A DNA stretch of 64,000 nucleotides from a virus (IMGVR_UViG_3300037852_000136:1665-65664), one strand, 5' to 3'; counted from the first letter of the stretch, positions 1-64,000 are shown. A program made the numbers and translations. Notes: a model not told the origin generated them from the sequence alone.

Positions 1-1530
1 GGAGCTAGCGACGGAGGAAATTTCCGCGTTCAACTTCCGAGACAATCGTTTGTCTCTGGCTCAAGCATAACCCTTAATGGCACGAGCCAATACGCATCAA
101 TCCCAACCTTGTTGGACACTGAAGGCAACACGACGGTTTCTATATGGGTCAATCCGCCAGCCTTGAACTCAAATGGAGCAGTACTCTGGACAAAGGTTAA
201 CGCAGCCACTGATTTCATGACTGTTTCGTTCACTGCGGCCGGAACCCTATCGTATAATTTGACTGTTGGAGGTACCGCGCTGATTTCTGCGGCTGTGAAT
301 GGTCACGGAAGTCACGTACTTCCGCTTAACAAGTGGTCTCATGTGGCATTCACTTATGGCAGCGGAGGGTTTCGTGCCTACGTTGACGCTGAAGCTGATT
401 TGAACCTTCCAGCGATTACAAGCGTGCCTGGTAATGGAACAACTGCATCGACGCGTATTGGCGCGAGCTCAGCGGCTGCAAATTTTGGCAATTTCACATT
501 TGATGAACACGCGGTGTTCAGCCGTCAGCTTGCTGATTGGGAGATCAAAGCCCTATTCGAGCGTCGCCCTGATACGCAAATCAAGGACGCATTTTCCAAG
601 TTGTCGGTATCGTCAAAATTAATAACAAACAGCACTGACATTATCCTTGAACCAACGATTGTCGCCCTAACGCCTGGTTCGGTGTACCACGCATTTGTTC
701 ATGACGGCGGTACTAATTTTACGGTCAACCGTCTGGCACATTTTACCTCCACAAACGGCACGACATTCACCTTGGCATCTGCTGATGTTCTATCGGGGGC
801 AACGGCATTATCTCCTACTATATGGTATGGAGGAACTTACGGCAGCCCCGCCGACGGGCTGTTTCACATGCTGGTTAACAACACAAGTTACACAGCCCCC
901 AGCAATTTGTCTCATTGGACATCGCCGGACGGCACGACTTGGACCAATAATGGAACCATTCTAACGAGCGGAGGTCAGTTCACCGCCTACACGAATTCCG
1001 CCATATATTATCCCCCGAGTGGGGGTGTTGTTCTTTTAAACGAATACTGGAATGCTGCCATAGCGCAGTATGTCTCAGGAATGTGGACAGGAACATCACT
1101 GACCAGCCTATCGTTTGTTGGAAACACATCAGGCATGGTCTACGGCGGAGGCCCTGATATTCACGCGCTTGGCAGCGGAAAGTATCTTGTCCTAAATCAT
1201 GGTTCTTTGATTGGGGCGACAAACGGCATTCCGACAGTGGGTCACGCCTCGATCACGACAGATTTCCTTAATTACATCGATGCTGGAATAACGCCCCAGA
1301 TACAGCTTTACGGTCCAACATTTGATCAAGGTGACCAAACTGCTGATCTTTTCGCAATAGAGAATTTCGACGGCGCAGGAACCTCTATTGTCTACTTCGC
1401 TGGATCTAACGACGGGTCAACAGGGGGAAATAGTGCCAGTGGATATACAATAAATGCCGGAATCTTTACCGGGACTCTCGCGCAGTTGTTTTCCGATAAT
1501 CTATCTTCGACGTTTGGGACCGAGCACTGA
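1..1530 (+). CDS. LamG/concanavalin-like lectin domain plus beta-propeller (glycoside-hydrolase-like) protein, 5' partial
   Basis: Frame is open from base 1; LNGTSQY..TVSIWV..NKWSHVAFTY..YVD..FDEHAVFSRQL LamG pattern; Asp-box-like TSTNGTTF and TSPDGTTW repeats. Confidence 0.75.
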   Translation, partial: GASDGGNFRVQLPRQSFVSGSSITLNGTSQYASIPTLLDTEGNTTVSIWVNPPALNSNGAVLWTKVNAATDFMTVSFTAAGTLSYNLTVGGTALISAAVNGHGSHVLPLNKWSHVAFTYGSGGFRAYVDAEADLNLPAITSVPGNGTTASTRIGASSAAANFGNFTFDEHAVFSRQLADWEIKALFERRPDTQIKDAFSKLSVSSKLITNSTDIILEPTIVALTPGSVYHAFVHDGGTNFTVNRLAHFTSTNGTTFTLASADVLSGATALSPTIWYGGTYGSPADGLFHMLVNNTSYTAPSNLSHWTSPDGTTWTNNGTILTSGGQFTAYTNSAIYYPPSGGVVLLNEYWNAAIAQYVSGMWTGTSLTSLSFVGNTSGMVYGGGPDIHALGSGKYLVLNHGSLIGATNGIPTVGHASITTDFLNYIDAGITPQIQLYGPTFDQGDQTADLFAIENFDGAGTSIVYFAGSNDGSTGGNSASGYTINAGIFTGTLAQLFSDNLSSTFGTEH

Positions 1531-1751
1531 TGACCCGCGTCATCCTCATAACTCTCTTGCTCTCATTTCCGGCCCAAGCAGCCGACAAGATGCTGATTCT
1601 CAACGATCAAGAGCAGGCGGCCCTGCGAGCCATTCTCGATACCGCGATCCACGCCCAAGGACTTACCGCCGTCAGCCGCAACGCCTTCGTGTTTTCCGAC
1701 AAGCTGGATGCCGCCGGGCCGCCGCCACCTCCAAAGGAGCCTCCGCAATGA
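1530..1751 (+). CDS. Small exported protein with signal peptide
   Basis: MTRVILITLLLSFPAQA|AD; start overlaps the upstream stop. Confidence 0.7.
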   Translation: MTRVILITLLLSFPAQAADKMLILNDQEQAALRAILDTAIHAQGLTAVSRNAFVFSDKLDAAGPPPPPKEPPQ

Positions 1752-3166
1752 AACGCCTCCTCGCCCCGCTCTTAGCGGGGTTCGCGCTCCTCATTCCGCT
1801 CTTACCGGCCCCACAAGCTGCCGCCGTTGAAGCGCAACTATACTGCTACCAAGGGCCGACCAATCCGCAGTGGGCGCCTTGCAGTTCGACCAACCAGCTT
1901 CAGGTTAGCGCTTCGGTTTCGGCGTCAATCACCGGCTTCCCCGGCACGACGCAAACGACCGGCACCCCGATCGCGGTTACGACCGGCGGGGTTACCGGGA
2001 CACTTCCGGCCGGCACCGTGGTGGTGGCTTCGAATGTGGGCGCTACCAACGGCGCGTACTGCAAGCTCGGCGCGTCTGCCACCACTTCGGACCAGCTGAT
2101 CCCGCCCAATTCGTGGTTTGGCTTCACGGTCGGAACCAACACCCAGCTTACTTGCATCACCTCGACCTCGACCACCACCGTGAACATGGTGGGCGGAGCC
2201 GGACTTCCGACCGGATCTGGTGGCGGGGGAGGCGGGTCGGGAGGAGGCGTCGTCACCCAGCCGACAGCCTCCTTGCTCAACGCCACCGTGGTGGGAACCG
2301 GGACGTTCCCTACCCAGCTCACCGGCGCGACCAACAATATTAATAACATCGCCGGGACGATCTCGCTCCCAACGGGCGCAGCCACGTCGGCCCTGCAGAC
2401 GACCGGCAATACGACGCTCACGACGATCAACACCACGCTTGGCTCCCCGTTTCAGGCGGGTGGCAATATCGGTAATATCACGGGCACGATCACGCTCCCG
2501 ACTGGGGCGGCGACTTCGGCCAATCAATCGACAGAAATTACTTCGCTAGCCACGATTGCAACTAACACCGGCGCGGCTATTCCATCGCAGTCGCCGGCGG
2601 TTCCGATTGGCGGCATCGGTGTTTGCGATGGAGCGAACGGAGCCACCAACCCGTGTACCACGGCGATGACGGTTAAAGCCGTTTCTACGGCTCCTGTAAC
2701 AGCAACGGATAAAGCTGCGGTCACCGTGCTTCGACCGGATAGCCCTGGCATCATTACGCTTGGACCGGCAGCAGATACGAGCGCGGTGCCTGAGGTTCTT
2801 ACACCGACTGCAAATTCAAACTCTACATTGAGCCATGCCAGCACGACGGCGCTAGGGACATCTTTGGTCGCCAAGGCGTCAGCCGGCAATCTCTACGGTT
2901 TTAATTGCGCGGCAATTGCCGGCGCCAGTGGCGGTAATTGCATCGCCTATAACGGCACAACGGTCCCAGGAACCGGAGCGTTGACTGGCGCAAACGTGCT
3001 CGACTTTTGCACGTTCGATACCGGCTCTAAAGGTTGTTCTCTCTCGCGTATCCCGCTCCCGGTTAACTATGGAACCGGCATTGTGATTCTGATCAGCAGT
3101 GCTGCATCTCCATACACCTACACGACCGGCACTGACACCGGAGCTATCAGCGTGGATTACAAGTGA
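1748..3166 (+). CDS. Thr/Gly-rich fibre-like protein with signal peptide and 10 Cys
   Basis: ATG at 1748 (ATGA overlap); MKRLLAPLLAGFALLIPLLPAPQAAA; duplicated NIxGTIxLPTGAATSA; poly-Gly linker. Confidence 0.8.
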   Translation: MKRLLAPLLAGFALLIPLLPAPQAAAVEAQLYCYQGPTNPQWAPCSSTNQLQVSASVSASITGFPGTTQTTGTPIAVTTGGVTGTLPAGTVVVASNVGATNGAYCKLGASATTSDQLIPPNSWFGFTVGTNTQLTCITSTSTTTVNMVGGAGLPTGSGGGGGGSGGGVVTQPTASLLNATVVGTGTFPTQLTGATNNINNIAGTISLPTGAATSALQTTGNTTLTTINTTLGSPFQAGGNIGNITGTITLPTGAATSANQSTEITSLATIATNTGAAIPSQSPAVPIGGIGVCDGANGATNPCTTAMTVKAVSTAPVTATDKAAVTVLRPDSPGIITLGPAADTSAVPEVLTPTANSNSTLSHASTTALGTSLVAKASAGNLYGFNCAAIAGASGGNCIAYNGTTVPGTGALTGANVLDFCTFDTGSKGCSLSRIPLPVNYGTGIVILISSAASPYTYTTGTDTGAISVDYK

Positions 3167-3420
3167 TGCGCATCATCATAGCGTTTTTAACTGGCCTTTT
3201 GCTATCAGCCGCAGTGGCACAGAACGTCCAGTCGCCATCAACAAGCAACACCGTGCCCAAGACAGTCGTAGGCAGCCTGCCGGTATGTGCGGCCGGAACT
3301 GAAGGGCTGATGTACGGCGTGACTGACGCTCTTACGCCGGTTGCTCTTTCTGCCGTGACTGGCGGCGGAGCCATCCACGCTCTTGTGTACTGCAATGGAA
3401 CTTCCTGGATCGTCGGATGA
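3166..3420 (+). CDS. Small exported fibre-associated protein
   Basis: MRIIIAFLTGLLLSAAVA|Q; VGSLPVC..VTDA..YCNGTSW motif of the kind seen in phage fibre modules. Confidence 0.75.
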   Translation: MRIIIAFLTGLLLSAAVAQNVQSPSTSNTVPKTVVGSLPVCAAGTEGLMYGVTDALTPVALSAVTGGGAIHALVYCNGTSWIVG

Positions 3421-4301
3421 CCAAACGCATCGCCACTTTCTTCCTGCTGCTTTATGCGGCTTTCTTTTGCTTTCAGCAGCAAGGGCGAAGCGCGGGGTGG
3501 TTGCCGCTTGCCGCGTCTCCAACGGGAGGGTGTTCGCAGGCGACGACATTTCTTGCTCGTACATCTGGTCTAAGCGGCACACAATCAACCGCCTATACGA
3601 CTATGATCTGCGGTATGGTAACGGACGGCACCTACTGCGGAACAGTGCAGGATGGTTTTTATATTTTTGCCACTAATACGACAACGACAGCGAACCTTAA
3701 TCTTTGCTCGACTAGCTTCGGTTTGACTGCGACTGGATCACCAACTTTTACCGCAAACCAGGGATATACCGGAACAGGCGCGACAACCGACTATTTATCT
3801 ACCGGCTTCGTTCCGAGGACAGCCGGCGGGAATATGGTCCTTAATTCAACTTCCTTATCTGTTTGTGTTTTTACCAGTCGAACGACTAACAATAACTATG
3901 TTGAGGTTGGAGTCGGCGGTTCCGGTGGTGATTTTACTTATATAAAGCCTGAGGCTGGAAATTTCGAATCGGACATAAACAACGGAGCCTTTCCAACGGG
4001 CACAAACGCAAATGCGCAGGGTAATTGGATAATATCTAGAACCGGGTCAGCAAATTACGCAGTTTACAACAATGGCGTTGCGACATCATTTTCTCCGCGG
4101 ACCTCTACTTCTGATCAATTGCCAGATGTCGCGGGAATAGACATTCTTGTTTTGAATAATAATAATAGCATCCAATCGGCGACAGCAGATCAGCTTGGCG
4201 CTGTGTGGTTTGGTGCGGGAGTTGGTGCCACGCCAGCCGCAAATATCTCAACTCGTATTAGAGCCTATTTTGCGGCGGTGGGAGCACCAAGTGGTTGCTA
4301 G
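3417..4301 (+). CDS. Lectin-like (concanavalin-type beta-sandwich) virion-type protein with N-terminal signal/anchor
   Basis: Hydrophobic N-terminus; FTANQGYTG..DYLSTGF..ISRT..YNNG pattern; 6 mature Cys. Confidence 0.65.
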   Translation: MTKRIATFFLLLYAAFFCFQQQGRSAGWLPLAASPTGGCSQATTFLARTSGLSGTQSTAYTTMICGMVTDGTYCGTVQDGFYIFATNTTTTANLNLCSTSFGLTATGSPTFTANQGYTGTGATTDYLSTGFVPRTAGGNMVLNSTSLSVCVFTSRTTNNNYVEVGVGGSGGDFTYIKPEAGNFESDINNGAFPTGTNANAQGNWIISRTGSANYAVYNNGVATSFSPRTSTSDQLPDVAGIDILVLNNNNSIQSATADQLGAVWFGAGVGATPAANISTRIRAYFAAVGAPSGC

Positions 4302-7300
4302 GATCGCGCTAGCTCTTTGGATTTTCTGTTCGCCCGCATTTGCATGGACGCACGGCTCGTCAACTGCGAACACGGCACCAATCGGCTTCGGCCTCGGCGG
4401 CCTGACGATCAACGTCGACCAGCCGTTCCTCAACCTGATGCACGCAGGACAGTATTGGGGCGCCACCAGCGGCTCGATCGCCATTACGGGCGTTGGGGCC
4501 GGCGCGGTCGATGCCGCTAGCGGCACCGGAAGCGTGACGGGGACGGCGCTTACGATAACGACGGTTTCTACTGGCACGTATCGCAAGAACCAGACGGTGA
4601 CCGGAACCGGCATCACGGGAAGTTCTGTCATCACCTCCGGCGGTGATTGCAGCCACGGCAATGAGCCGTGCTCATTTACGCTCAGCCAGTCTTCGTCAGC
4701 GACGGGCTCGATCGCTGTAGCCGGCAGCGGACATCTCGTCCGCATCAGCCTTGCATCCAACGCACCTGTTGTGGAAGCGACGGTCACGGCTTCGATCTCG
4801 ACCGATCCCGAGCTGGGAAACCTCACGACCGCGACCGGAGTGACCGTCAGCGGCAACGTGATGACGGTGCCGAACACAAACATCATGGGCACGTTCGCGA
4901 CCACGAGCGGGACCACTTGTGGCGCCAATGGCTGCATCGTGACGGGCGCTGGGTTCCCGGCGAACACCGTGATCAACACGGACGGGTCGACTACCAACAC
5001 CGCCTGCGGTGGAGTGCAGTGCACGGGCAACAGAGTTGATCGTAGCGGCACGTTCGCGCTCAACAACTCGTTCACGGTCGCCTCAGGTGTGACCGTCACG
5101 GCGTCCAACACATTGACGCCAGTATTGCATGTCACAGCCGTCAGCAGCGGGCACATTCAGCAGGGTGCCTACGTCTCCGCGCCGGCAACGAACGGCACAA
5201 CGATCAATATTTCATACACGGCGCTGACCGGCACGACTGGGAACTACAGCCTATGTGACGCTTTTACGTGCGGAACCCCGGCCGCCCAGACGCAATCCTC
5301 ACAGACGTTCTTGATCAGCAGCATTCGCCCGAACGTATCAGGCGTGACGGGGCCGACGGAGGCCAACGGCTGCGGCTCCATCATCCCGGTTAACGACGGC
5401 GCGAGCTTCGACTGTGTTGGACTTGATTATTCCGGCACGACGTGGGGCGGCGCGGGGTCGATCTCGATCAGGTACGGCGAGTACAATTACGCTTTCAACC
5501 TCGATGCCAACGGCTATCCGCAATCGATGACCGGCAGCGGCATGGCCGCCGGCATCACTATGACGGAGTACGATCTAGGTAGTCTAAACCCATCAAGCGG
5601 GATCAACTCCAACGGCTACGACAACACGACGCAGACGGGGCCGTTCTATTCGGCCGGAAATTATCTCGTCCAGTACACAGGAGGCAGCGGAGGATGCGGC
5701 GGGACCGTCACCTATGGTGGCGATGCGGCGTGCTCGTCTACCGTCAGTCAAGGCACCGATGTAATAAACGTCGCGACGGCAACTGGTAGCGGCATCAGCG
5801 TTCAGATCAACAACATCACCGGCGGCTACGTCCACGGCATGTCGATGGTTTACTGTGGGACATATTCCGCAACGGCTTATTTACCATCGCATTGCAGCAC
5901 CGGCTACGACACGCTTCTGGCCAATGGGGAGAACTTCAACCCTGTCTTCGTCGCCAAGCTCAAGGCGGGCGGCACAACCCGTTTCATGGACTGGCTGCAG
6001 GCCAACAACACCGCGCAGGTTAATTTCACTCAGCGGCCGACGCTGACGCAGCTATTCTGGCACGGCATCTGGAGCGTTAATCAGACCGACCCGATGCCAA
6101 ACGGCACGCCAATCGAGGCGATGATTCAGCTTGCAAACGAAGCCGGTATGGACCCTTGGTTTAACATGCCGCTGCTGGCGACTGACGCTTACGTTACTTC
6201 GTTTGCCAACCTCGTGCACAGCAACTTGAACTCAAATCTTCGTGCCTATGTCGAGTGGGACAATGAAATTTGGAACGTCTGTAACGGTGCGAACCCGACG
6301 TACCGTCCTGGACTAGCTACCTCGATCGCGGCATTTCCGAACGCCGCGAACGTGTGCGGCGGATTTCGGGAGTATTTTGAATCATTGCGCGCAACGCAGG
6401 CGCGCTCACTGTGGAAAACTGCATGGGGCGCGGATGCTAACCGCGTCTTCGGCGTCATGGCAGGGCAGGGCGGCGGCGACGGCATCTGTTCGTTTGGGCC
6501 ACTGAATTGCGTGCTATTGCAGCTCGCGCCTGGGGCCGATGGAAGTAATATCGCGACGCAGTGGACCGCTTACGGACTGCGCACGGATAGCGGCTCCTCT
6601 ACCTCGGCCTCGATCACCGGCACGGTGATGACGGCGGGCGGCACTACCAGTGGCTTCAAGGTCGGGCAGTTTCTTACCGGCAACAACGTCACATCTCCCA
6701 CCACGATCGCCTTCGACGCTAACAACACAACTCCGACTTCGTGTGGTGGGTCGCCATGCACGGGGAATACCGGCAACGGCACCTACGGGCTCACGGCGTC
6801 TTCGACCGCTTCGGCTACGAGCATAACAGGGGTAGCTGGAGCCTCAACCAACATCGACATATTCGCGGTTGGGAAGTACCTGCAGCCGTGCGGACCAGTC
6901 AGCAGCTACGACGGCTTTACGAACGATCAGTATTTTACTCAGATGAACACCGGCGGCCTTGGATGCACCGGTGGATCGCTTGCGACGACGGTGGCCGAGG
7001 GGCAGCTTGACTACAATACGGTTCACGCCTTTGGCCTTCCGATTGTCGCTTATGAAATCGGGCAGCAGTTTATCGCTGGTGGCGACACGTCAGCCGCACA
7101 GGTGTTCGCCAACGGCACGCGCGACGCTCGCATGGGGACGACATTTCAAAGCCTGTTCGGTCAGCTTAAGAGCATTGGCTTTGACGTGATGAATTACTAC
7201 GTGCTGACGGGCCAAGCCACGCACTTCGGGGACTTCATCGGGCTCGAGAACATCAACCAGACGACTACGCCGACTTATGGTGGGATTTTGACTTTTAATG

Positions 7301-7362
7301 CCGCGAATCCATGCTGGTGGGGATCGCAGGCGCCGTGGGCGAGCGCGGGAGGATGTCGGTAA
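4291..7362 (+). CDS. Large exported tail-fibre/tailspike-like protein with C-terminal glycoside-hydrolase-like TIM barrel
   Basis: GTG 4291 after GGAG; MVARIALALWIFCSPAFA|W; RFMDW..PIEAMIQLANE..DPWFNMP..YVEWDNEIWN..AYEIGQ clan-A-like motifs; Thr/Gly beta repeats; many Cys. Confidence 0.78.
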   Translation: MVARIALALWIFCSPAFAWTHGSSTANTAPIGFGLGGLTINVDQPFLNLMHAGQYWGATSGSIAITGVGAGAVDAASGTGSVTGTALTITTVSTGTYRKNQTVTGTGITGSSVITSGGDCSHGNEPCSFTLSQSSSATGSIAVAGSGHLVRISLASNAPVVEATVTASISTDPELGNLTTATGVTVSGNVMTVPNTNIMGTFATTSGTTCGANGCIVTGAGFPANTVINTDGSTTNTACGGVQCTGNRVDRSGTFALNNSFTVASGVTVTASNTLTPVLHVTAVSSGHIQQGAYVSAPATNGTTINISYTALTGTTGNYSLCDAFTCGTPAAQTQSSQTFLISSIRPNVSGVTGPTEANGCGSIIPVNDGASFDCVGLDYSGTTWGGAGSISIRYGEYNYAFNLDANGYPQSMTGSGMAAGITMTEYDLGSLNPSSGINSNGYDNTTQTGPFYSAGNYLVQYTGGSGGCGGTVTYGGDAACSSTVSQGTDVINVATATGSGISVQINNITGGYVHGMSMVYCGTYSATAYLPSHCSTGYDTLLANGENFNPVFVAKLKAGGTTRFMDWLQANNTAQVNFTQRPTLTQLFWHGIWSVNQTDPMPNGTPIEAMIQLANEAGMDPWFNMPLLATDAYVTSFANLVHSNLNSNLRAYVEWDNEIWNVCNGANPTYRPGLATSIAAFPNAANVCGGFREYFESLRATQARSLWKTAWGADANRVFGVMAGQGGGDGICSFGPLNCVLLQLAPGADGSNIATQWTAYGLRTDSGSSTSASITGTVMTAGGTTSGFKVGQFLTGNNVTSPTTIAFDANNTTPTSCGGSPCTGNTGNGTYGLTASSTASATSITGVAGASTNIDIFAVGKYLQPCGPVSSYDGFTNDQYFTQMNTGGLGCTGGSLATTVAEGQLDYNTVHAFGLPIVAYEIGQQFIAGGDTSAAQVFANGTRDARMGTTFQSLFGQLKSIGFDVMNYYVLTGQATHFGDFIGLENINQTTTPTYGGILTFNAANPCWWGSQAPWASAGGCR

Positions 7363-7851
7363 ATGGGTGCGGTACTTCAAAGCGGTGCAGCAACTCCCGG
7401 CCACGCGGCCAAGTGGGTGACCGATGGCGTGATCGCGGATGCTGGCGGTATGCCGGCCGCCCAGCGTGTCCTCGCGAGCTTGCGCGGTGCCAATTTCAAC
7501 ACCACGAACGATCAGCCGATCGCCATCCCGCTCAACTTTACGGCGTTCCAGCTCAACTCGATCATCATCACGAACGCCTCCATTAGCCTGACGGCCGCCG
7601 TGGGAGGGTTCTACCCGCTGGCTGCTAAGGCGGGAACCCCGATTGTGGCGGCTTCGCAGGCGTATTCAGCACTTACCGGCATAAACTCGCTAATGACCGC
7701 CACGCTGGCAGCATTCGGTTCCGGCACCCGGTTCTCGTCAGCCAATCTCGGTAGCATCGGGGGGCTATTGGCAGTGTGGTTTTCATTAACGACCCCGCAG
7801 GGCGTTGCTGCGACTGCAGATATATACCTCATCGGTACGGACCTCTCATGA
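7363..7851 (+). CDS. Virion structural protein (no signal peptide, no Cys)
   Basis: N-terminal QSGAATPGHAAKWVTDGVIADAG motif shared with the next gene. Confidence 0.7.
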   Translation: MGAVLQSGAATPGHAAKWVTDGVIADAGGMPAAQRVLASLRGANFNTTNDQPIAIPLNFTAFQLNSIIITNASISLTAAVGGFYPLAAKAGTPIVAASQAYSALTGINSLMTATLAAFGSGTRFSSANLGSIGGLLAVWFSLTTPQGVAATADIYLIGTDLS

Positions 7852-9875
7852 AAAAAGTTATTGTCCTTGTTCTGCTGCTTTATCCCGCGGTCGCGGGAGG
7901 GCAGCCGGTGCAGCAAAGCGGAAATGTCACGCCTGGACACGTCCCCGTTTGGATCACCAATGGTGTTGTGGGTGACGGGGGCACAGCTGCGCAAGGCGCG
8001 CTGTCTAGCCTCGGCATCACGGCTTCGGGTCCAAGCTTCTGCATCAACAGCGACCTTACGTCCGCCGCCGGCTGGCAGCAGTTTTGTTTTGGCGTAACGA
8101 CCGCGGGCGGTGGTACGATCAGCGTTAAAAATTTCGGGACAGCTCCTGCCGAGCCGCTAAATATCACCGTTAACGGAACAAACTACAATTTCCCATTCGT
8201 AGCTTCAGGAATTATCGGACCAAATAGTACGACAGTAGGTGATTTGGCACTATGGAATAATACCTCCGGCACGCTACTAAAAGACGCCGCCATGTCGGGC
8301 GATGTCACGATGAACGGCAGCGGCGTCACTTCTCTTGCTTCTGTCGTGACCGCGGGTGGCCCCACCGGCTCCGCTACGACCACGCCCATCATCACGTATG
8401 ACGCTAAGGGGCGCCTCACTTTAGTGTCGGTGGCCACGATCGCACCGCCGTGGTCTGCGATCACTGGGACGCCGACAACTCTGGCAGGCTATGGAATCAC
8501 TTCTCCGCTGCCATATGCACAGGGCGGGTGCAACGCCACCACGCAAGCTGGATGCACCAACAACCTGTTTCCGACTCCCACTCGTGCTGGTGATATACCT
8601 TACTGGAACGGAACGACGTGGTTGTCGGTCGCGGGAAATAACAGCGGCAACGCCTGCCTGCAAGAAACTTCAGTCGGCGCCCCGAGCTGGACCCCGTGCA
8701 ACTTCACGGCCGGTGCCACCATCTACAACGTGGTTGCGGCCTACGGAGCCAAGAGGAACTATCTGGTTCTTCTAGACGGAGCAATGTCCGGCGCGTCAAC
8801 GACGCTGACCAGTGCTTCTGCGCATTTTGCCAGTGGGGATGTCGGTAAGTACATTGCGGTTGCAGGAGCGGGAGCCGGCGGTATTACGCTCTATACAACC
8901 ATCGCTACTTTCGTAAACTTGACAACGATCACGCTTACCAGCGGGAATATTTCTGGCGGAGCCATTTCCGGCAAGATCGTAGAGTACGGCAACGATGATG
9001 CCCCTGAGTTTCAAACCGCGTGGAATGCGTGCGTGACAGGAGGCGGCGGCACTGTTTATGTTCCGGTCGGGTCCTACTTTGTTTCGCAGTTGAATATGGC
9101 TAACACGCAAGTTTCTTGTGTCCTTAAGGGTGAAGGGCCGCAATCAACCAGAATATTCCCACTTGAAATTGGCGCTTACGGAACGGCGAACGGTCACGTT
9201 TTCGATATGACGGGATCGGCGTTCATCGGGCTGACCAACTTCCAGTTCGGTGCCTACTACACGCTCGCAGTGCCAACCACCGGCATAGCGATGATGCAAG
9301 TTGCAAGCAACGTGTCAAATCGCATGTCGATAAATCATGTCTATTTCAGCGGGCAATATTCCGGCACGACGTTTTACGATTACGGAGTGCCGTCGCTCTA
9401 TACGATTTCCGACTCCGACTTTTACAACTACTTTCCGGGAGCCGGTACTCACAATGCTTTATACCTCACGAGCACCAATATATTGAGCTACACATCATCT
9501 TTTGCAACCGTCACTAGTGGCACGATTTCGACTTCTGACATTCTGTTTTCTGGCGATGAATTTCATAAATTCGCGGGTACTGGGGCGGATAATTCGGTGG
9601 TCCTTCTTGACGGTGTTGGAAACGTCCATTTTCTGAGCGGGGTCATATCCGGTGGAGCGACTACATATGTCTGGCTCAACGGTACGAACGGCACCCTTGG
9701 GTTCCTCAACGTGACGATGGAAACGGAGGGCCAGCCAGTCGAGCCGACGTATGAATACTACAGTAACTCAGCTACGTGGTCTCAATTGTCAGACCCGCTT
9801 ACGACTGCTATCGTTACGACCTCGAAATACAACGTAGCTGTTACGACCAATACGGAGACCTTTTCCAACCACTAA
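7848..9875 (+). CDS. Tailspike-like protein with pectate-lyase-3-type beta-helix and signal peptide
   Basis: MKKVIVLVLLLYPAVAGG|Q; fibre motifs ITYDAKGRLT and TPTTLAGYGIT; NVVAAYGAK..NDDAPEFQTA..GGTVYVPVGSY..LKGEG beta-helix entry. Confidence 0.8.
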   Translation: MKKVIVLVLLLYPAVAGGQPVQQSGNVTPGHVPVWITNGVVGDGGTAAQGALSSLGITASGPSFCINSDLTSAAGWQQFCFGVTTAGGGTISVKNFGTAPAEPLNITVNGTNYNFPFVASGIIGPNSTTVGDLALWNNTSGTLLKDAAMSGDVTMNGSGVTSLASVVTAGGPTGSATTTPIITYDAKGRLTLVSVATIAPPWSAITGTPTTLAGYGITSPLPYAQGGCNATTQAGCTNNLFPTPTRAGDIPYWNGTTWLSVAGNNSGNACLQETSVGAPSWTPCNFTAGATIYNVVAAYGAKRNYLVLLDGAMSGASTTLTSASAHFASGDVGKYIAVAGAGAGGITLYTTIATFVNLTTITLTSGNISGGAISGKIVEYGNDDAPEFQTAWNACVTGGGGTVYVPVGSYFVSQLNMANTQVSCVLKGEGPQSTRIFPLEIGAYGTANGHVFDMTGSAFIGLTNFQFGAYYTLAVPTTGIAMMQVASNVSNRMSINHVYFSGQYSGTTFYDYGVPSLYTISDSDFYNYFPGAGTHNALYLTSTNILSYTSSFATVTSGTISTSDILFSGDEFHKFAGTGADNSVVLLDGVGNVHFLSGVISGGATTYVWLNGTNGTLGFLNVTMETEGQPVEPTYEYYSNSATWSQLSDPLTTAIVTTSKYNVAVTTNTETFSNH

Positions 9876-9921
9876 AACTGCCAGTTGCGGCGGTAAAGAA
9901 ACAGGCGTAAAGTCCCCGCCC

Positions 9922-10284
9922 ATGCGGCTCCCGCTCGCCATAGCTTTGTGCCTGTTGCCCAGCCTAGGGATAGCGCGGGACAACGGCCAATGGGGCAGCC
10001 AAACCAGCGTGCGCGAATGGTTCCAGGGCTTGCAGCAGCCGGACAATCCGCGCGTCTCGTGCTGCGGTGAAGCTGACGCGTTCGAGGCCGACACGTTCGA
10101 GGTTGAAGGCGACCACTACGTCGCGATAATCACGGACGGCAGGGGCGTTATCGCGAACGGCACTCGCATCAATGTTCCGAACTACAAGATGAAGTACGAC
10201 AGCGGCAACCCAACCGGCCACGGCATCATATTTCTCGACACCAAAATGTTGGTGTTCTGCTACGTCGCACCCGGAGGAGCTTAA
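9922..10284 (+). CDS. Exported Cys-containing protein (SCC motif)
   Basis: Signal peptide MRLPLAIALCLLPSLGIA; WFQGL..VSCCGEAD..GNPTGHGIIF..FCYV. Confidence 0.7.
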   Translation: MRLPLAIALCLLPSLGIARDNGQWGSQTSVREWFQGLQQPDNPRVSCCGEADAFEADTFEVEGDHYVAIITDGRGVIANGTRINVPNYKMKYDSGNPTGHGIIFLDTKMLVFCYVAPGGA

Positions 10285-10287
10285 ATC

Positions 10288-10917
10288 ATGCCCAACAAAC
10301 CCGTCGTCATCGATATCTATCACGGCGATCCGGTCGAGGATTTCCAGGCCGTCAAGGACTTCGGCATCGTCGGCGTGATCCACAAGGCGAGCGAGGGGCT
10401 GAACGACACTGACCCTCTCTACGATGTTCGCCGCCAGGCCTTCACCGCCATCGGCATGAAGTGGGGCGCATACCACTTCATGCACGACGGTAACGGTGCC
10501 GCGCAGGCAGATCACTTTCTTGAGGTCGCGAAGCCTGACGATGATACGCTGCTCGCCTGCGATTGGGAGAACAATTCCAGCGGTGGCGGCTATCCGTCCG
10601 TGCAAACCGTCAAGGATTTTTGCCAACGCATAAACGACAAGCTCGGGCGCTGGCCGGTCCTCTACTCCGGAAACGTCGCCAAGGAGGCCCTCAAGGGCAA
10701 GGACCCATTTTTCGCAAACCTGCGGCTTTGGCTGTGTCAGTACGGTGCCAAGTGGAAGGTGCAAACGAGCTGGACGACGCCATGGCTGTGGCAGCAGAAC
10801 GGGGATGACTTCGGTCCCGGCCCGCACCAGATCCCCGGCATCAAGGGCAACTGCGACAACAACTGCTTGGTCGACCCGATGACGGTGGATGATCTCCTTG
10901 CGGAGTGGGCGACATGA
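10288..10917 (+). CDS. Endolysin, glycoside hydrolase family 25 lysozyme
   Basis: IDIYHG, HKASEG, GAYHF, ACDWE, LWLCQY, WLWQ, CDNN motifs. Confidence 0.92.
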   Translation: MPNKPVVIDIYHGDPVEDFQAVKDFGIVGVIHKASEGLNDTDPLYDVRRQAFTAIGMKWGAYHFMHDGNGAAQADHFLEVAKPDDDTLLACDWENNSSGGGYPSVQTVKDFCQRINDKLGRWPVLYSGNVAKEALKGKDPFFANLRLWLCQYGAKWKVQTSWTTPWLWQQNGDDFGPGPHQIPGIKGNCDNNCLVDPMTVDDLLAEWAT

Positions 10918-52105: not shown

Positions 52106-52882
52106 ATGCTTACCTCCTACGAGACCCGCACCCGCCAGCTCTTACAAAACCCTTCGGCGCCGACCTCGCTATACGCGACGGTTGACATTGACTCGTGGAT
52201 CAATCAGGCGCGCGGGCAGCTTGCGGCTGAGACCGAGTGTATCCGGGTCATTGGCACGATCCAGACCGTCATCGGGCAGCGTAACTACAATTTTTCGGCT
52301 ATCAATATCGGCACGCCCTCGGTCACGGGAGCGCAGGGCGTTATTCATGTCCGGCGCATCATGTACAACGTGGCCTCCGGCCAGAAGATGGTGTACTCGC
52401 GCGGCTGGGAGTATTTCGATCAATTTTTTCTGAATAACCCGGTGCCGCAGAACGGGCCGCCATCGGAGTGGAGTCAGTACGGGCAAGGGTCTTCCGGGCA
52501 AGGCACGATTACGGGGCAAGGCACGGGTACGATGTCGACCGGCAGCTTCTATCTCGACCCGCCGCCGGATTTGGTCTACACTTTGAATTGCGACTGCACC
52601 TGCTATCCACAGGCTTTGGCGGCCGATGCGGACGTGGAGGCGATACCGTACATCTTTACGGATGCGATTCCCTACTTCGCGGGATATCTGGCGCTGCTGT
52701 CGGCGCAGACCTCCGCCCGGCAGGCGGATGCTGAACGTTTATTCGGATATTACGAGACATTCGTGCAACGGGCGCGGCGCTTCTCGAACCCCTCCGTGTT
52801 GCGCGGGCAGTACCAGCAGAGCCCCGATCCTACGACGCCGAACAAGCTCGGGCTGCAGAAGGCCGCCAATGGCAACGCTTAA
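52106..52882 (+). CDS. Head-tail adaptor protein
   Basis: IDSWINQAR..TVIGQRNY..GPP..YLDPPPD..Y; AAGGAG SD. Confidence 0.7.
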   Translation: MLTSYETRTRQLLQNPSAPTSLYATVDIDSWINQARGQLAAETECIRVIGTIQTVIGQRNYNFSAINIGTPSVTGAQGVIHVRRIMYNVASGQKMVYSRGWEYFDQFFLNNPVPQNGPPSEWSQYGQGSSGQGTITGQGTGTMSTGSFYLDPPPDLVYTLNCDCTCYPQALAADADVEAIPYIFTDAIPYFAGYLALLSAQTSARQADAERLFGYYETFVQRARRFSNPSVLRGQYQQSPDPTTPNKLGLQKAANGNA

Positions 52883-53795
52883 CACCTACCTTAAGGCCGC
52901 CCAGAAGCTTCTACACGAGAAGCGGCAGGAAGAACTCAACCCGCGCGATCTGATCGACTATATCAACGAGGGGCGGCGCGAGGTGGCGGAGCGGACGCAG
53001 TGTGTCCGCAGGCTCACGCCTATCTGCGGCTCGATCAGCGGGTGGACGATAACCAACGGAGGGCATGGATATACTGCGCCGACTTTTACGGTGAGCCCAC
53101 CCGACTTCCCGAGCGGCAACCCGATCAATCCGAACGGCTTGCAAGCGACTGCGACCGGCGTTGTTGCTGGCGGCGTTATCACGTCGATCTTTAGCCAAGC
53201 GGGAGGCGCTGGCTACTTCCAACCGCAACTGACAATCACAGATTCTACGGGAAGCGGAGCGACCGCGACCCCGATCATTCCGGGCGTTAACAAGCTCAAT
53301 CCCGGCCAGGAGAGCTACAACTTTTCCGACATCGACGTGAGCATGTTTCCCGGCATCGCTTCGATCTTCGCGATAAAATCGGTCAGCGTGATCTACGCGA
53401 ACTACCGCTATTCACTGCCGATGTACGCCTTCAGCGTTTATCAGGCAAAGATTAGGCAATACCCATTCCAGTACCAGTACGTCCCCTGCTTCGCTTCCCA
53501 GTTTGGGCAAGGCAACCAAGGTTCGTTTTACGCTTATCCGATTCCGTCTCAGACCTACCAATGGGAGTTCGATCTATTTTGCGAGCCGCAGGATCTGGTC
53601 GACGATCAGAGCGTGGACGTGATCCCAAACCCGTGGTCAGACGTGGTGCAATACTGGGCCGCATTCAAAGGCTACTCGGAGCTGCAAAATTTCAACGCGG
53701 CAAGATACTATCTAGATATGTTCGACAATATGACGCAGCGCAAGTCAAACTACGCTCGGATTGGACGGTCGGTTTCGCAATATGGACGATACTGA
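52869..53795 (+). CDS. Second adaptor paralogue with inserted GxGY repeat domain
   Basis: LIDYINEGRREVAERTQCVR aligns with 52106; GQESY; YPIPSQTY. Confidence 0.7.
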   Translation: MATLNTYLKAAQKLLHEKRQEELNPRDLIDYINEGRREVAERTQCVRRLTPICGSISGWTITNGGHGYTAPTFTVSPPDFPSGNPINPNGLQATATGVVAGGVITSIFSQAGGAGYFQPQLTITDSTGSGATATPIIPGVNKLNPGQESYNFSDIDVSMFPGIASIFAIKSVSVIYANYRYSLPMYAFSVYQAKIRQYPFQYQYVPCFASQFGQGNQGSFYAYPIPSQTYQWEFDLFCEPQDLVDDQSVDVIPNPWSDVVQYWAAFKGYSELQNFNAARYYLDMFDNMTQRKSNYARIGRSVSQYGRY

Positions 53796-53977
53796 TGCTC
53801 ACCGAGGACGAAGCCGCAACCAAGTGGTGCCCGTTCAACGTCGCACGCTCGACATCATCGCGCTGCATTGGTTCTGAGTGCATGATGTGGCAGTGGGGTC
53901 TTAAGCCGACCCCGCCAGACGCTTCCGCTCCCAAGGGTTATTGTGGGCTGTGCAATACGCAGTGGCGGCCGCAATGA
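53795..53977 (+). CDS. Small Cys-rich protein
   Basis: EAATKWCPF..CIGSECMMWQW..GYCGL. Confidence 0.65.
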   Translation: MLTEDEAATKWCPFNVARSTSSRCIGSECMMWQWGLKPTPPDASAPKGYCGLCNTQWRPQ

Positions 53978-62929: not shown

Positions 62930-63205
62930 ATGTTTGAAACCGACATCAAGAACCTGGCTTCCGCTATCGTGGCGCAGGCTCTCAAGGAAGGAACAAGTTT
63001 CCAAGATAAGGTGGACGCCTTCAAGGCGGTCACCACCTATTATGGCTTACTGCTGAAGAACCGGGACTCTGCTGACGCGGAGCAAGTTCCTGCTGGGCCT
63101 AGCTTCCTGGATTTCAGCGAGGCCGTAGCGGGAGACCAGGATGGCAGAAGCAAAGCGGTTCGAACTGGTTCAGGAAGACGAGCCCGCCCCCGAGCCGACA
63201 GCTAG
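62930..63205 (+). CDS. Hypothetical protein
   Basis: Starts directly after the upstream stop. Confidence 0.6.
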   Translation: MFETDIKNLASAIVAQALKEGTSFQDKVDAFKAVTTYYGLLLKNRDSADAEQVPAGPSFLDFSEAVAGDQDGRSKAVRTGSGRRARPRADS

Positions 63206-63431
63206 TTCACCACGCGACAGCGTGGCTACCGACTTTCTTCTTTTCTCCCTGCAAGCCCTCTCCAAGCGGACCCTCATTGCCCTCAGTAACCTCTTTTGCT
63301 TGCTGACGGTCGGCTCCGTGTTCGTGCTGTTCTACAGCATCGTTCCGTCCCCCAACGCCTTCCAAATCGTCTCCGCCACCATCTACGCCGTTTTCGTCCT
63401 GGCGGCGAACGCCATCGTGAGGAGAATGTGA
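63141..63431 (+). CDS. Small membrane protein (2 TM)
   Basis: Two hydrophobic helices; GGAG SD. Confidence 0.65.
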   Translation: MAEAKRFELVQEDEPAPEPTASSPRDSVATDFLLFSLQALSKRTLIALSNLFCLLTVGSVFVLFYSIVPSPNAFQIVSATIYAVFVLAANAIVRRM

Positions 63432-63826
63432 TGCGCTTCGTTGCCGCGTTTCTTTTAGGGCTTGTCCTGCTAACAGCGGGACCAGCTCTCGCCCAGCAAG
63501 GGCTCCCGCTCACAACCGTGTCGTCGCAGGTGGCTTCTGCCCCGCTGAAGCTGCCGGCCGTTGTGGCGTCCGGCAGATCGGTCGCGAGCTACGGCATTGT
63601 TGTTGCTCTCTCGTCCGGGGCAAGCCTGACCTACAGTGTCGAAGTGACGGCGGATCCGAACCCAAGCTCGACCGGAAACTGGGTGGCGCATGACGTGCTC
63701 GTCGCCAAGACCGCAAGCGCGGTCAGCAACATCGGCTACCCGATCACCGGCATCCGCCTCAACGTGACGACCTGGGCTTCCGGCACCGCGACCATGGGGG
63801 TGGCGCTATGGGGCGAAGTGCCGTGA
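63431..63826 (+). CDS. Exported beta-sandwich virion-type protein with signal peptide
   Basis: MRFVAAFLLGLVLLTAGPALA|Q; YSVEVTAD..W..YPITGIRLNVT. Confidence 0.72.
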   Translation: MRFVAAFLLGLVLLTAGPALAQQGLPLTTVSSQVASAPLKLPAVVASGRSVASYGIVVALSSGASLTYSVEVTADPNPSSTGNWVAHDVLVAKTASAVSNIGYPITGIRLNVTTWASGTATMGVALWGEVP

Positions 63827-64000
63827 ACTGGAGAGCCTGGGTTGCGAGTGGGCTGATTGCGCTGTGCGCCAGTTTGGCCCTCGCTCAATCCGGTCCGAAC
63901 GGCGGCATCGCTAAGCTGAACAACGGGATCGCCGGAAAAAACGGTGGAATCTCAGGTTCTACCGCTGGCATCTCCGGCCCTGGCGGGGGCATCTCCGGCC
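63823..64000 (+). CDS. Exported Gly-rich protein with signal peptide, 3' partial
   Basis: MNWRAWVASGLIALCASLALA|QSGPNGGIAKLNNGIAGKNGGISG...; open to window end. Confidence 0.6.
   Translation, partial: MNWRAWVASGLIALCASLALAQSGPNGGIAKLNNGIAGKNGGISGSTAGISGPGGGISG

Follow-up and report, generated by a model that had tools for sequence, protein, structure and literature searches.

The window, the whole stretch of DNA analysed here, covers 64,000 nt from an uncultured soil phage (IMGVR_UViG_3300037852_000136), and the circularly overlapping ends of the contig indicate a circular genome of ∼65.4 kb. The head genes are of the HK97 type and are accompanied by internal ejection proteins. Between two ejection-type proteins and the endolysin lies a module of ∼12 kb in all, in which nine leader-bearing genes on the same strand are translationally coupled (Table 1), placing the array in the late structural module, as expected of genes for tail fibres or tailspikes. 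The conserved membrane protein that heads the module matched no Pfam or PHROG family; by tblastn it was present in 44 related loci (35–77% identity), always just 5′ of leader-bearing genes. The initial annotation had listed a series of ORFs here, and an ORF was present at each of the starts that it gave. The one at 63823, however, is not a separate gene: together with the 5′-open ORF at 1–1530 it forms a single 1053-aa gene that crosses the contig junction. The long form of this gene (63300–64000) is identical in contigs of runs X1 and X2, which extend past the last base of the window.

Table 1. Genes of the leader-bearing module and its borders, with leaders, predicted cleavage sites and cysteine counts (total/mature)
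Coordinates	Strand	Product	Leader and predicted cut	Cys	Remarks
58188, 59762	+	Ejection-type proteins			Upstream border of the module
63141..63431	+	96-aa conserved membrane protein, two hydrophobic segments	None		Heads the module
63431..63826	+	131-aa protein	MRFVAAFLLGLVLLTAGPALA, cut ALA/QQG	0	GAGGAG upstream of ATG
63808..64000	+	1053-aa giant protein, N-terminal part: leader, then Gly-rich repeats	Ends AWVASGLIALCASLALA, cut ALA/QSG (63808/63823)	5/4	Continues into 1..1530
1..1530	+	1053-aa giant protein, C-terminal 509 aa, lectin-type domain			
1530..1751	+	73-aa protein	Ends SFPAQA, cut AQA/ADK	0	TGATG overlap with upstream gene
1748..3166	+	472-aa fibre-like protein	MKRLLAPLLAGFALLIPLLPAPQAAAVEA, cut before QLYC	10/10	
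3166..3420	+	84-aa protein	Ends SAAVA, cut AVA/QNV	2/2	
3417..4301	+	294-aa protein	MTKRIATFFLLLYAAFFCF, hydrophobic; no clean AxA site	7/6	
4291..7362	+	1023-aa protein	Ends CSPAFA, cut AFA/WTHG	25/24	GTG start
7363..7851	+	162-aa protein	None	0	
7848..9875	+	675-aa tailspike-like protein: leader, hairpin motif, N-domain, pectate-lyase-like body	MKKVIVLVLLLYPAVAGG, cut before QPVQ	8/8	
9922..10284	+	120-aa protein	MRLPLAIALCLLPSLGIA, cut before RDN	4/3	Last gene ahead of the lysis genes
10288..10917	+	GH25 endolysin	None		Downstream border; Pfam Glyco_hydro_25 1.7e-26; endolysin PHROGs

Leaders were scored with a hand-made rule (n-region of ≤12 aa with net positive charge, best 8-residue Kyte–Doolittle mean ≥2.3, small residues at −3/−1). 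With these thresholds, which were chosen after the array had been seen, 9 of the 10 array proteins passed, the exception being the 162-aa protein at 7363–7851, compared with 0 of 68 non-array ORFs at their first start (three passed only at internal alternative starts), in agreement with the signal peptides initially proposed for the array. The GH25 endolysin failed the rule. In all nine leaders the n-region spans 2–9 residues with a net charge of +1 or +2, the best 8-residue hydropathy is 2.6–4.0, and an AxA-like cleavage site is present in all except that of 3417. No lipobox or twin-arginine motif was found in the nine. Overlapping stop and start codons (ATGA or TGATG) at 1530, 3166, 3417 and 7848, and Shine–Dalgarno-like sequences upstream of 63431, 1748 and 7363, lend support to the chosen starts, and an independent protein-database gene call agrees on the starts of the 675-aa and 1023-aa proteins. 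A recount also reproduced the even mature cysteine numbers reported earlier for 1748, 3166, 3417 and 7848. One cysteine lies inside the leader in each of 3417, 4291, 9922 and 63808, and the mature count is even in six of the seven cysteine-containing array proteins, with 9922 being odd.

The 675-aa tailspike belongs to a large family. Directly after its leader it carries a hairpin motif, Q-S-G-x-x-T-P-G-H...W-x-T-x-G-V, followed by an N-domain with a Cys65–Cys80 pair, for which we found 1280 representatives of 50%-identity clusters (E ≤ 1e-3). Among the best 150 of these, 141 passed the leader rule, with the match mostly beginning at residues 19–36; the survey of relatives suggested by the initial annotation thus revealed conserved putative signal peptides. 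The nine failures comprised two fragments, four over-long starts with an internal leader, one sequence just under the threshold, one starting at the motif and one fusion. In 28 aligned tailspikes the leaders vary, but three positions do not: C65, C80 and Q19, which directly follows the predicted cut. In 139 tailspike relatives a median of 25 residues separates Met from the conserved motif, too short a stretch for the leaders to be membrane anchors; 11 of the 139 leaders are lipobox-like and three RR-like. Gln occupies +1 in only 49 of 153 leaders, and the Bacteroidetes Q-rule is therefore not evident. The architecture is modular: residues 1–150 of the tailspike recur in many loci at 38–53% identity, joined to unrelated bodies. 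In a predicted model of the N-domain, C65 (strand 61–67) and C80 (strand 75–84) lie in strands that are consecutive in the chain. This model had no Foldseek match among solved structures at E ≤ 0.001 (best VIA Z 3.3), and no solved phage anchor was matched. Since the N-domain was found in 0 of 400 other genomes of one carrier MAG's phylum and in 0 of 400 genomes of another carrier MAG's class, we regard it as viral.

The 472-aa protein shows the same pattern of a conserved N-terminus (∼residues 24–148) and a shuffled C-terminal part, which is typical of receptor-binding proteins. It has 778 homologues (E ≤ 1e-3), 105 of the best 120 of which passed the leader rule, and the Atlas clusters nearest to it are 87–96% viral. 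The initial annotation had described the bodies of the array proteins as receptor-binding-like, and this was borne out in part, for the giant protein (Pfam Laminin_G_3 at 1.6e-18 in the 1–1530 part; DUF2341 at 1.4e-12 over the whole mature chain) and for the tailspike, which matched phrog_32881 (1.6e-20), annotated as 'pectin lyase activity'. That match is the only one to a family on the tailspike body, and its PHROG category is 'moron, auxiliary metabolic gene and host takeover' rather than 'tail'. A weak GH32-like match of the giant protein (E 0.05) was not significant. The GH-like barrel proposed for the 1023-aa protein was not recovered: no Pfam family matched at E ≤ 0.01 and no PDB sequence at E ≤ 0.1, and the predicted structure alternates strands and helices with a mean pLDDT of 41.8, too low for use. 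N658–E659 and E922 are invariant in nine sequences, and the protein is possibly a clan GH-A-like enzyme; its relatives also keep WTHG right after leaders of differing sequence. Among the smaller proteins, the last ∼45 aa of the 84-aa protein are found again in relatives, where they terminate larger proteins with leaders, and the 294-aa protein matches phrog_18498 (function unknown; 6.6e-8) and has homologues in nine loci, aligned from residue 27 on. The two PHROG families named here are the only ones that the array proteins of the window matched. The 131-aa and 120-aa proteins had no Pfam or PHROG match, and the latter had no tblastn match in the fetched loci either. The leaderless 162-aa protein begins directly with the hairpin motif of the tailspike. 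Present in 32 loci (59–79% identity in the best 12 of 32), it exceeds all other genes of the module in conservation and, in the loci inspected, immediately precedes the gene for the leader-bearing tailspike, making it a candidate cytoplasmic adaptor.

Database searches returned no cultured relative. At least one leader-flagged ORF was present in 42 of 49 loci with the tailspike N-domain and, downstream of the ejection protein (47–53% identity), in 11 of 12 loci, although some of the latter ORFs are small and of uncertain status. In relatives whose capsid protein is 69–76% identical to that of the window, the core tail operon has the order capsid / 400-aa / 258-aa / 308-aa / [fibre] / 773-aa. 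The fibre slot is occupied either by a leader-bearing, cysteine-rich copy (20 cysteines in loci L035 and L048) or by a leaderless, cysteine-free one (L045, L055/L056 and L059). Leaderless full-domain homologues start directly at the hairpin motif and lack both cysteines. Homologues starting downstream of the hydrophobic segment had been named at the outset as an observation that would speak against export, and a few relatives do start there; because these also lack the cysteine pair, we consider the leader an add-on rather than take them as counter-evidence. When eight relatives were scanned against PHROGs, three, all of them leaderless carriers of the N-domain, matched tail fibre, tail spike and EPS depolymerase families, and the other five matched nothing.

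The cysteines of the N-domain come and go in pairs. Across 191 non-redundant copies, positions 65/80 carry both cysteines in 157 copies, a single one in 9 copies and neither in 25; the corresponding numbers are 19, 0 and 172 for positions 34/44 and 65, 6 and 120 for positions 135/147 (phi 0.83–1.00 for the three pairs). All 164 leader-bearing copies have Cys80, compared with 2 of 27 leaderless copies. The leaderless copies are mostly members of the 162-aa family, which diverge after ∼28 residues; the like-for-like set of leaderless full-domain copies is small (seven non-redundant copies on six contigs). An even number of cysteines in the mature chain was counted for 129 of 139 tailspike relatives and for 104 of 106 members of the 472-aa family. 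In loci L022–L070, with ORFs called crudely as in the other related loci (+ strand, longest non-overlapping, up to four alternative starts as rescue), leader-bearing ORFs were even in 93 cases, odd in 16 and without cysteine in eight, whereas the other ORFs were even in 112, odd in 143 and without cysteine in 158 (Fisher p = 4e-14). The covariation, parity and leader tallies all count sequences that share ancestry, not independent events.

Taken together, these comparisons speak strongly for export to an oxidising compartment in which folding involves disulfides: the leaders are kept in property rather than in sequence across hundreds of divergent relatives, an invariant residue follows the predicted cut, the cysteine pairs come and go together and are almost confined to leader-bearing copies, and a strong excess of even counts marks leader-bearing proteins, unlike leaderless ones. 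The comparative evidence from leaders, cysteine pairs and parity supports the part of the earlier proposal that concerned periplasmic export and disulfide folding, and nearly all the host-recognition proteins very probably fold in the periplasm, away from the remaining parts of the particle. The hydrophobic N-termini could instead be uncleaved membrane anchors, assembly helices or artefacts of start-codon choice, with the proteins folding in the cytoplasm like ordinary fibres. The missing −3/−1 site of 3417 fits this explanation, as does the database gene caller's choice of a downstream start for the 1748 gene (297-aa call), yet homologues align through the 1748 leader region, several starts are fixed by gene overlaps, the leaders are short, with an invariant Q at +1 in the aligned tailspikes, and covarying cysteine pairs and strongly even parity go almost exclusively with leader-bearing copies, making it improbable. 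Still less probable is a host that is not an ordinary diderm, with leaders that would target the cell surface or the medium instead of a closed periplasm, or a phage or host oxidase that forms disulfides inside the cell. The three MAG contigs carrying the ejection protein were binned to Terracidiphilus, Solirubrobacteraceae and Hyphomicrobium, and no lipobox-bearing spanin was recognised in the first reading of the sequence, both of which would suit an unusual host. The short leaders are, however, of the type usual in diderms, the leaderless ORFs of the same genomes lack the parity bias that an oxidising cytoplasm should impose, and fibres secreted into soil water would be diluted, which would hardly favour assembly.

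What the putatively exported proteins do is a separate matter. We give a probability of roughly 0.55 to the reading that the block starting at 63431 and continuing over the contig junction as far as 10284 represents a receptor-binding and depolymerase module, nine of whose ten proteins are Sec-exported, disulfide-locked and most likely parts of the virion, the last because the tailspike keeps the anchor domain of its leaderless relatives' fibres. Virion membership is plausible in view of this shared N-terminal domain and of the swap in the same slot of the core tail operon. A less likely alternative is that the proteins are exported and disulfide-bonded without joining the virion, as free periplasmic or released factors: possibly enzymes and lectins that act from within to remove or cover the polysaccharide receptor on the host surface, or that prevent superinfection or the adhesion of progeny to debris, or loosen the matrix. 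Leaders, cysteine pairs and parity fit such factors equally well, and so does the carbohydrate-directed look of the bodies (Laminin_G_3, DUF2341, the moron-category pectin lyase, the possible GH-A signature); leader-bearing genes of other phages have also been read as host-envelope modifiers, in the closest publication found (PMC10367356). A free enzyme, however, would need neither an N-terminal anchor domain, which leaderless relatives carry on tail-fibre and tail-spike bodies, nor the fibre slot within that operon of core tail genes, and both large families show the conserved N-terminus and shuffled C-terminus of receptor-binding proteins. Within the module, moreover, no leaderless fibre candidate was seen besides the 162-aa protein, whose degree of conservation is too high for a determinant of host range.

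In the favoured reading, nine of the ten products of the block would be synthesised as Sec preproteins and translocated to the periplasm of a diderm host, where signal peptidase I would cut the leaders, mostly after AxA and often exposing Gln, and disulfide bonds would lock the chains. The 675-aa tailspike would then present, as its new N-terminus, the domain that leaderless relatives apparently use as an ordinary tail-fibre anchor, and the 162-aa protein, with the same hairpin motif, would be the component that is mounted in the cytoplasm. The exported proteins could meet the cytoplasmic head–tail particle only once holin and endolysin merge the compartments; judging solely from topology, docking on virions would take place during or after lysis, as first proposed. 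More tentatively, these loci may represent a large uncultured clade of tailed soil phages that build their particles in two compartments and join the parts only at lysis, with the route switched by leader and cysteine pairs. The head, tail core and small adaptor would be made in the cytoplasm and the whole variable host-recognition apparatus would be Sec-exported, trimmed and disulfide-locked in the periplasm, and close relatives would move one fibre between the two routes by gain or loss of the leader and cysteine pairs.

We found no published description of leader-bearing tail fibres of this type in the literature searched. A known precedent for an exported adsorption protein is g3p of the filamentous Ff phages, which, like the coat protein g8p, is made with a Sec leader and processed by leader peptidase; g3p is disulfide-bonded in the periplasm and stays membrane-anchored until it joins the particle, which is assembled at the membrane and extruded through the envelope. 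The array described here resembles g3p in that its putative adsorption proteins carry leaders and are probably disulfide-bonded. Unlike in Ff, the genes for head, portal, terminase and ejection proteins are of the kind found in tailed, lysing phages, and no C-terminal anchor was noticed in the array proteins.

Tailed phages provide a second point of reference. P22-type tailspikes and branched adaptor systems such as G7C gp66/gp63.1, CBA120 and SP6/K1-5 have receptor-binding proteins that lack a leader and fold in the cytoplasm. In these systems the enzyme that binds the receptor attaches to the finished particle at a late step; its N-terminal part, which contacts the particle, is conserved, whereas its body can be exchanged. 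The conserved N-domain joined to variable bodies and the small conserved candidate adaptor gene adjoining a variable spike gene are reminiscent of these systems, from which the module departs in the leaders of its proteins and in an N-domain that matched no solved structure in the search described above. Other late phage proteins are known to be exported through host Sec and to stay in or at the periplasm up to the time of lysis, namely signal-peptide endolysins, SAR endolysins and spanins. These, however, are lysis proteins and not virion parts, and the endolysin of this phage is the leaderless GH25 enzyme.

Secreted or lipoprotein morons also occur next to tail genes, as in the case of lambda Bor and T5 Llp. 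Lambda Lom is likewise described as a secreted moron beside tail genes (PMC12309495). With these three the module has in common that leader-bearing genes lie among tail-fibre genes. Whereas Lom, Bor and Llp are outer-membrane proteins or lipoproteins, each encoded by a lone accessory gene, the nine coupled genes found here have no lipobox and constitute the module itself. Predicted Sec leaders, often with Gln exposed after the cut, have further been reported for tailed-phage genes of Porphyromonas gingivalis phages (Matrishin et al. 2023, PMC10367356); the passages of that article on leader-bearing genes take those of unknown function as modifiers of the host envelope and leave tail fibres unmentioned. 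In the phage studied here, by comparison, the leaders precede proteins with a tail-fibre anchor domain.

All the ORFs that the initial annotation had read as exported tail-fibre genes exist in the window. The ORF at 63823 and the 5′-open ORF at 1–1530 are likewise both real, although they are not separate genes but parts of a single gene for a 1053-aa giant protein. Using a hand-made rule with thresholds tuned by eye (positive n-region of ≤12 residues, best 8-residue hydropathy ≥2.3 and a small −3/−1 site), we predicted Sec-type signal peptides (leaders) for nine of the ten proteins encoded from 63431, across the contig junction, to 10284; the exception was the 162-aa protein at 7363–7851. None of the 68 other ORFs, which come from a crude gene call, passed at its first start, and three passed only at internal start codons. 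The leader-defining starts are backed by stop/start overlaps at 1530, 3166, 3417 and 7848, and ribosome-binding-like sequences precede 63431, 1748 and 7363. Furthermore, the genes at 7848 and 4291 have the same lengths in independent database gene calls, and homologues of the protein at 1748 align right through the leader region. The leader at 3417 is without a clean cleavage site, and no lipobox or twin-arginine motif was found in the nine leaders.

Two observations on related gene calls and leaders stand beside these results. For window 1748–3166, a database gene call (P0001) covers only 297 aa from an internal TTG start; the homologues align from residue 1, leader included, and automatic calls can miss such leaders. 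A lipobox-like L-[IL]-A-S-C, a few positions ahead of the A-L-A|Q cleavage site, is present in 11 of 139 relatives' leaders (including the database relatives P0130, P0148 and P0162), and some tailspike relatives might, from their sequences, be lipoproteins, with none in the window.

Features of the window and fibre genes in the corresponding slot of sister genomes. Mature cysteine counts in the window are totals minus leader cysteines read from the N-termini.
Sequence	Position	Feature	Cysteines
Window	58188, 59762	Large internal proteins, ejection-type, read from position	
Window	63431	Leader-bearing module gene	0 mature
Window	63808 and 1–1530	Giant protein	4 mature
Window	1530	Leader-bearing module gene	0 mature
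Window	1748	472-aa fibre-like protein	10 mature
Window	3166	Leader-bearing module gene	2 mature
Window	3417	Leader-bearing module gene	6 mature
Window	4291	1023-aa protein	24 mature
Window	7848	675-aa tailspike	8 mature
Window	9922	Leader-bearing module gene	3 mature
Window	10288 (start)	GH25 endolysin	
L035	7998–10808	Slot fibre, leader	20
L048	7932–11210	Slot fibre, leader	20
L045	8025–8843	Slot fibre, no leader	no pair
L055/L056	L056: 7941–10580	Slot fibre, no leader	no pair
L059	7983–8432	Slot fibre, no leader	no pair

The window corresponds to bases 1665–65664 of one 65,664-nt virus contig, whose last 275 nt recur as its first 225 nt, a 50-nt indel aside. Because the contig ends repeat, the genome, ∼65.4 kb long, is circular or circularly permuted. 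Among the encoded proteins are a helicase, a DNA polymerase, a primase-helicase and a major head protein; the large terminase gave a weak match, and no tRNA genes were found. The junction region was present in contigs of two soil-metagenome runs, and two further runs (X3 and X4, 3% of sampled words) were uninformative on habitat. The two copies of the overlap (window 63726–64000 and genome bases 1–225, with the 50-nt indel between them) read differently: the contig-end copy contains both the stop codon that closes gene 63431 and the giant gene's own start and leader, and the lack of 50 nt in the contig-start copy fuses gene 63431 and the giant ORF in frame, so that the giant protein would take over the leader of its upstream neighbour. 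As contigs of the metagenome runs X1 and X2 contain the long form alone, the short form may have arisen in assembly or represent a minor variant.

Predicted leaders were also widespread among related loci, where gene calls are crude and counts refer to related sequences rather than independent events. The ejection protein at 59762 led to 12 IMG/VR loci at 47–53% identity, 11 of which had at least one rule-passing ORF downstream of it, with a maximum of six leader-flagged genes in one locus. In several of the 12, the flagged genes lay directly behind a conserved small membrane protein; in a few, flagged ORFs were only small or further downstream. The tailspike of one related locus (L011) has a GTG-initiated leader, outside the first start choice. 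The 472-aa protein had 778 homologues at E ≤ 1e-3, and 105 of the best 120 passed the leader rule; those that did not were mainly fragments, over-long starts and clear leaders just below threshold. The N-terminal domain of the tailspike (N-domain, residues 19–150) retrieved 1280 50%-identity cluster representatives at E ≤ 1e-3 (836 at E ≤ 1e-10). Most of the best 150 matches start at protein residues 19–36, and 141 of these 150 representatives passed the rule. Scanning IMG/VR with the N-domain alignment yielded 49 loci, mostly on contigs of 57–68 kb, with at least one leader-flagged ORF in 42. Predicted leaders characterise a large clade of viruses.

Megablast and three tblastn searches found no close relative among 50,697 GenBank phage records, two of which gave the best portal protein identity, 25–26%, and the N-domain was absent from the GenBank phages searched. 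As to the host, three contigs of metagenome-assembled genomes (MAGs) from the contig scan were binned to three different phyla. The N-domain occurred in one of 401 genomes from the phylum of one carrier MAG and in one of 401 from the class of a second. Judged from these searches, the N-domain family is abundant and uncultured, and it is viral, since each match was the carrier's own phage-like contig.

The cysteines of these proteins proved to be tied to the leaders. The alignment of 28 tailspikes shows freely varying leaders but invariant Q19 (directly after the predicted cut), C65 and C80. Conserved predicted mature N-termini in these families read Q-x-V-x-Q-S-G, Q-Q-V-N-x-Y-C and W-T-H-G. 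Across 191 non-redundant N-domain copies, cysteines came and went largely in pairs: columns 65/80 held both in 157 copies, one in 9 and neither in 25; columns 34/44 both in 19, one in none and neither in 172; and columns 135/147 both in 65, one in 6 and neither in 120. C80 was present in 164/164 leader-bearing copies versus 2/27 leaderless ones, and of these two exceptions one is a fusion with cysteines in an internal leader and the other starts exactly at the hairpin motif that opens the N-domain, possibly through a truncated gene call. Mature cysteine counts were even for 129 of the 139 tailspike representatives and for 104 of the 106 proteins in the 472-aa family; in the window, the protein at 9922 departs from this with three. 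In the loci L022–L070, leader-flagged ORFs of ≥100 aa were even, odd or cysteine-free in 93, 16 and 8 cases, compared with 112, 143 and 158 for all other ORFs (Fisher p = 4e-14), with 1.65 versus 0.81 cysteines per 100 residues. This parity and pairing is the signature expected if all cysteines were oxidised outside the cytoplasm, and it is absent from leaderless proteins of the same genomes.

The hairpin motif, H-x-x-x-W-x-T-x-G-V-x-x-D-x-G, occurs at window 7363–7440 and 7914–7990, and within the tailspike domain it appears to recur ∼100 residues further on, around residues 130–150 of the 7848 protein. Pairs 34/44 and 135/147 flank the N-terminal and the second copy in this domain, and in leader-bearing relatives each copy can be bracketed by two cysteines, in the manner of a staple (34/44 in 19/191, 135/147 in 65/191). 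A 562-aa database relative, P0122, begins with ∼45 residues resembling the leaderless 162-aa protein, followed by an internal leader and the N-domain at 87–215; it may stem from natural fusion of the two adjacent genes or from a frameshift in the assembly. We also considered Bacteroidota-style glycosylated fibres for this phage. Gln occupies +1 in 49 of 153 leaders, and the Bacteroidota O-glycosylation sequon, D-[ST]-[AILVMT], was observed twice in the nine leader proteins versus ∼11.7 expected (summed shuffle means), hence without enrichment. On these counts we rejected the candidate; the apparent depletion may reflect dipeptide bias.

If the leaders act as predicted, the proteins would be translocated by Sec, processed by signal peptidase I, oxidised by the host disulfide machinery and retained in the periplasm. 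Their N-terminal domain would then bind the tail once the holin and the GH25 endolysin had merged the compartments. Tail binding after lysis is biochemically plausible, because spikes of P22-type phages are added late and autonomously to finished particles. The chief alternative has these exported proteins as free enzymes and lectins acting on the host's own surface, a role that their carbohydrate-directed domains would fit. It leaves unexplained, however, why there should be an N-terminal anchor domain. In both the 7848 and the 1748 families the N-terminal part is conserved and the C-terminal bodies are unrelated, which speaks for virion parts.

The free-enzyme view equally leaves unexplained a swap within one gene slot. 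Six loci (L035, L045, L048, L055, L056 and L059) have a capsid protein 69–76% identical to that of the window, and their fibre gene belongs to the core tail operon, in the place flanked by counterparts of window 52869–53795 and 53941–56262, where the window itself has only a 145-nt gap. This gene comes after a homologue of the window's 308-aa protein in all but L059, in which the 308-aa match is weak and the fibre gene comes after a homologue of the 258-aa protein; a homologue of the 773-aa protein is downstream in L035, L045, L048 and L056, and the sequences of L055 and L059 stop with the fibre gene. Leader and cysteines are present or missing together in this slot (table). A slot gene with the N-domain anchor is, from its sequence context, difficult to interpret other than as a tail fibre. 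Full N-domain copies without a leader form a small like-for-like set of seven non-redundant copies (L045, L055/L056, L059, two in L064 and two in L068), which begin at the motif and carry Gly, Ala or a similar residue at both cysteine positions. The bodies of three scanned leaderless copies matched PHROG tail fibre, tail spike or EPS depolymerase families. What the sequences demonstrate is the presence of predicted Sec-type leaders and of cysteine pairs tied to them.

Two small proteins accompany the module. The leaderless, cysteine-free 162-aa protein carries the same hairpin motif at its start, and no gene of the module is better conserved (32 loci, the 12 best 59–79% identical); in the loci inspected it lies directly upstream of the leader-bearing tailspike. 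The predicted complex of this protein with tailspike residues 19–150 scored 0.00 and 0.01, where the mark is 0.32; this counts neither way. The 96-aa protein of window 63141–63431 has two hydrophobic segments. Conserved across 44 related loci, it is always encoded after the ejection genes and ahead of the first gene with a leader; it had no family match and could be a holin-like or assembly-related membrane protein.

Structural searches added little. The AlphaFold2 model of the N-domain, from a 31-row alignment, had a mean pLDDT of 69.6. No known anchor fold can be named from it, because Foldseek gave no match at E ≤ 0.001 in PDB or BFVD, VIA-align against 48,161 chains reached a best Z of 3.3 and the N-domain profile found nothing below E 0.09 among PDB sequences; fold novelty does not follow. 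The 'GH-like barrel' proposed for the 1023-aa protein stays unproven, with no PDB sequence match, a mean model pLDDT of 41.8 and a best Atlas score of 0.83 that is a lead only. The 675-aa protein had no match among PDB sequences, and the giant protein matched GH32 at E 0.05 only.

In the textbook view, tailed phages assemble wholly in the reducing cytoplasm. Sec and disulfide routing of receptor-binding proteins, if true, would mean a second compartment for assembly, turn the host's genes for secretion and oxidative folding into phage dependency factors, and account for how soil-phage fibres could be disulfide-stabilised once outside the cell. Such fibres would require periplasmic expression for their active form. 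Annotation pipelines tend to class phage genes with leaders as morons or as genes of host interaction. The switch of leader and cysteine pair between close relatives is a natural experiment for which expression suffices, with no need for phage culture.

Fibres and Sec export are each known; their combination was not found described in the literature searched, which held no report of Sec leaders on tailed-phage fibres, although supplementary signal-peptide tables might. The nearest in print are leader-bearing proteins without assigned function in some Porphyromonas phages, read there as envelope modifiers (PMC10367356). The present analysis adds the linkage between leader and cysteine pair, as well as the swap within one slot. 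In function, the adsorption protein of filamentous phages comes closest: its export and disulfide bonding precede assembly.
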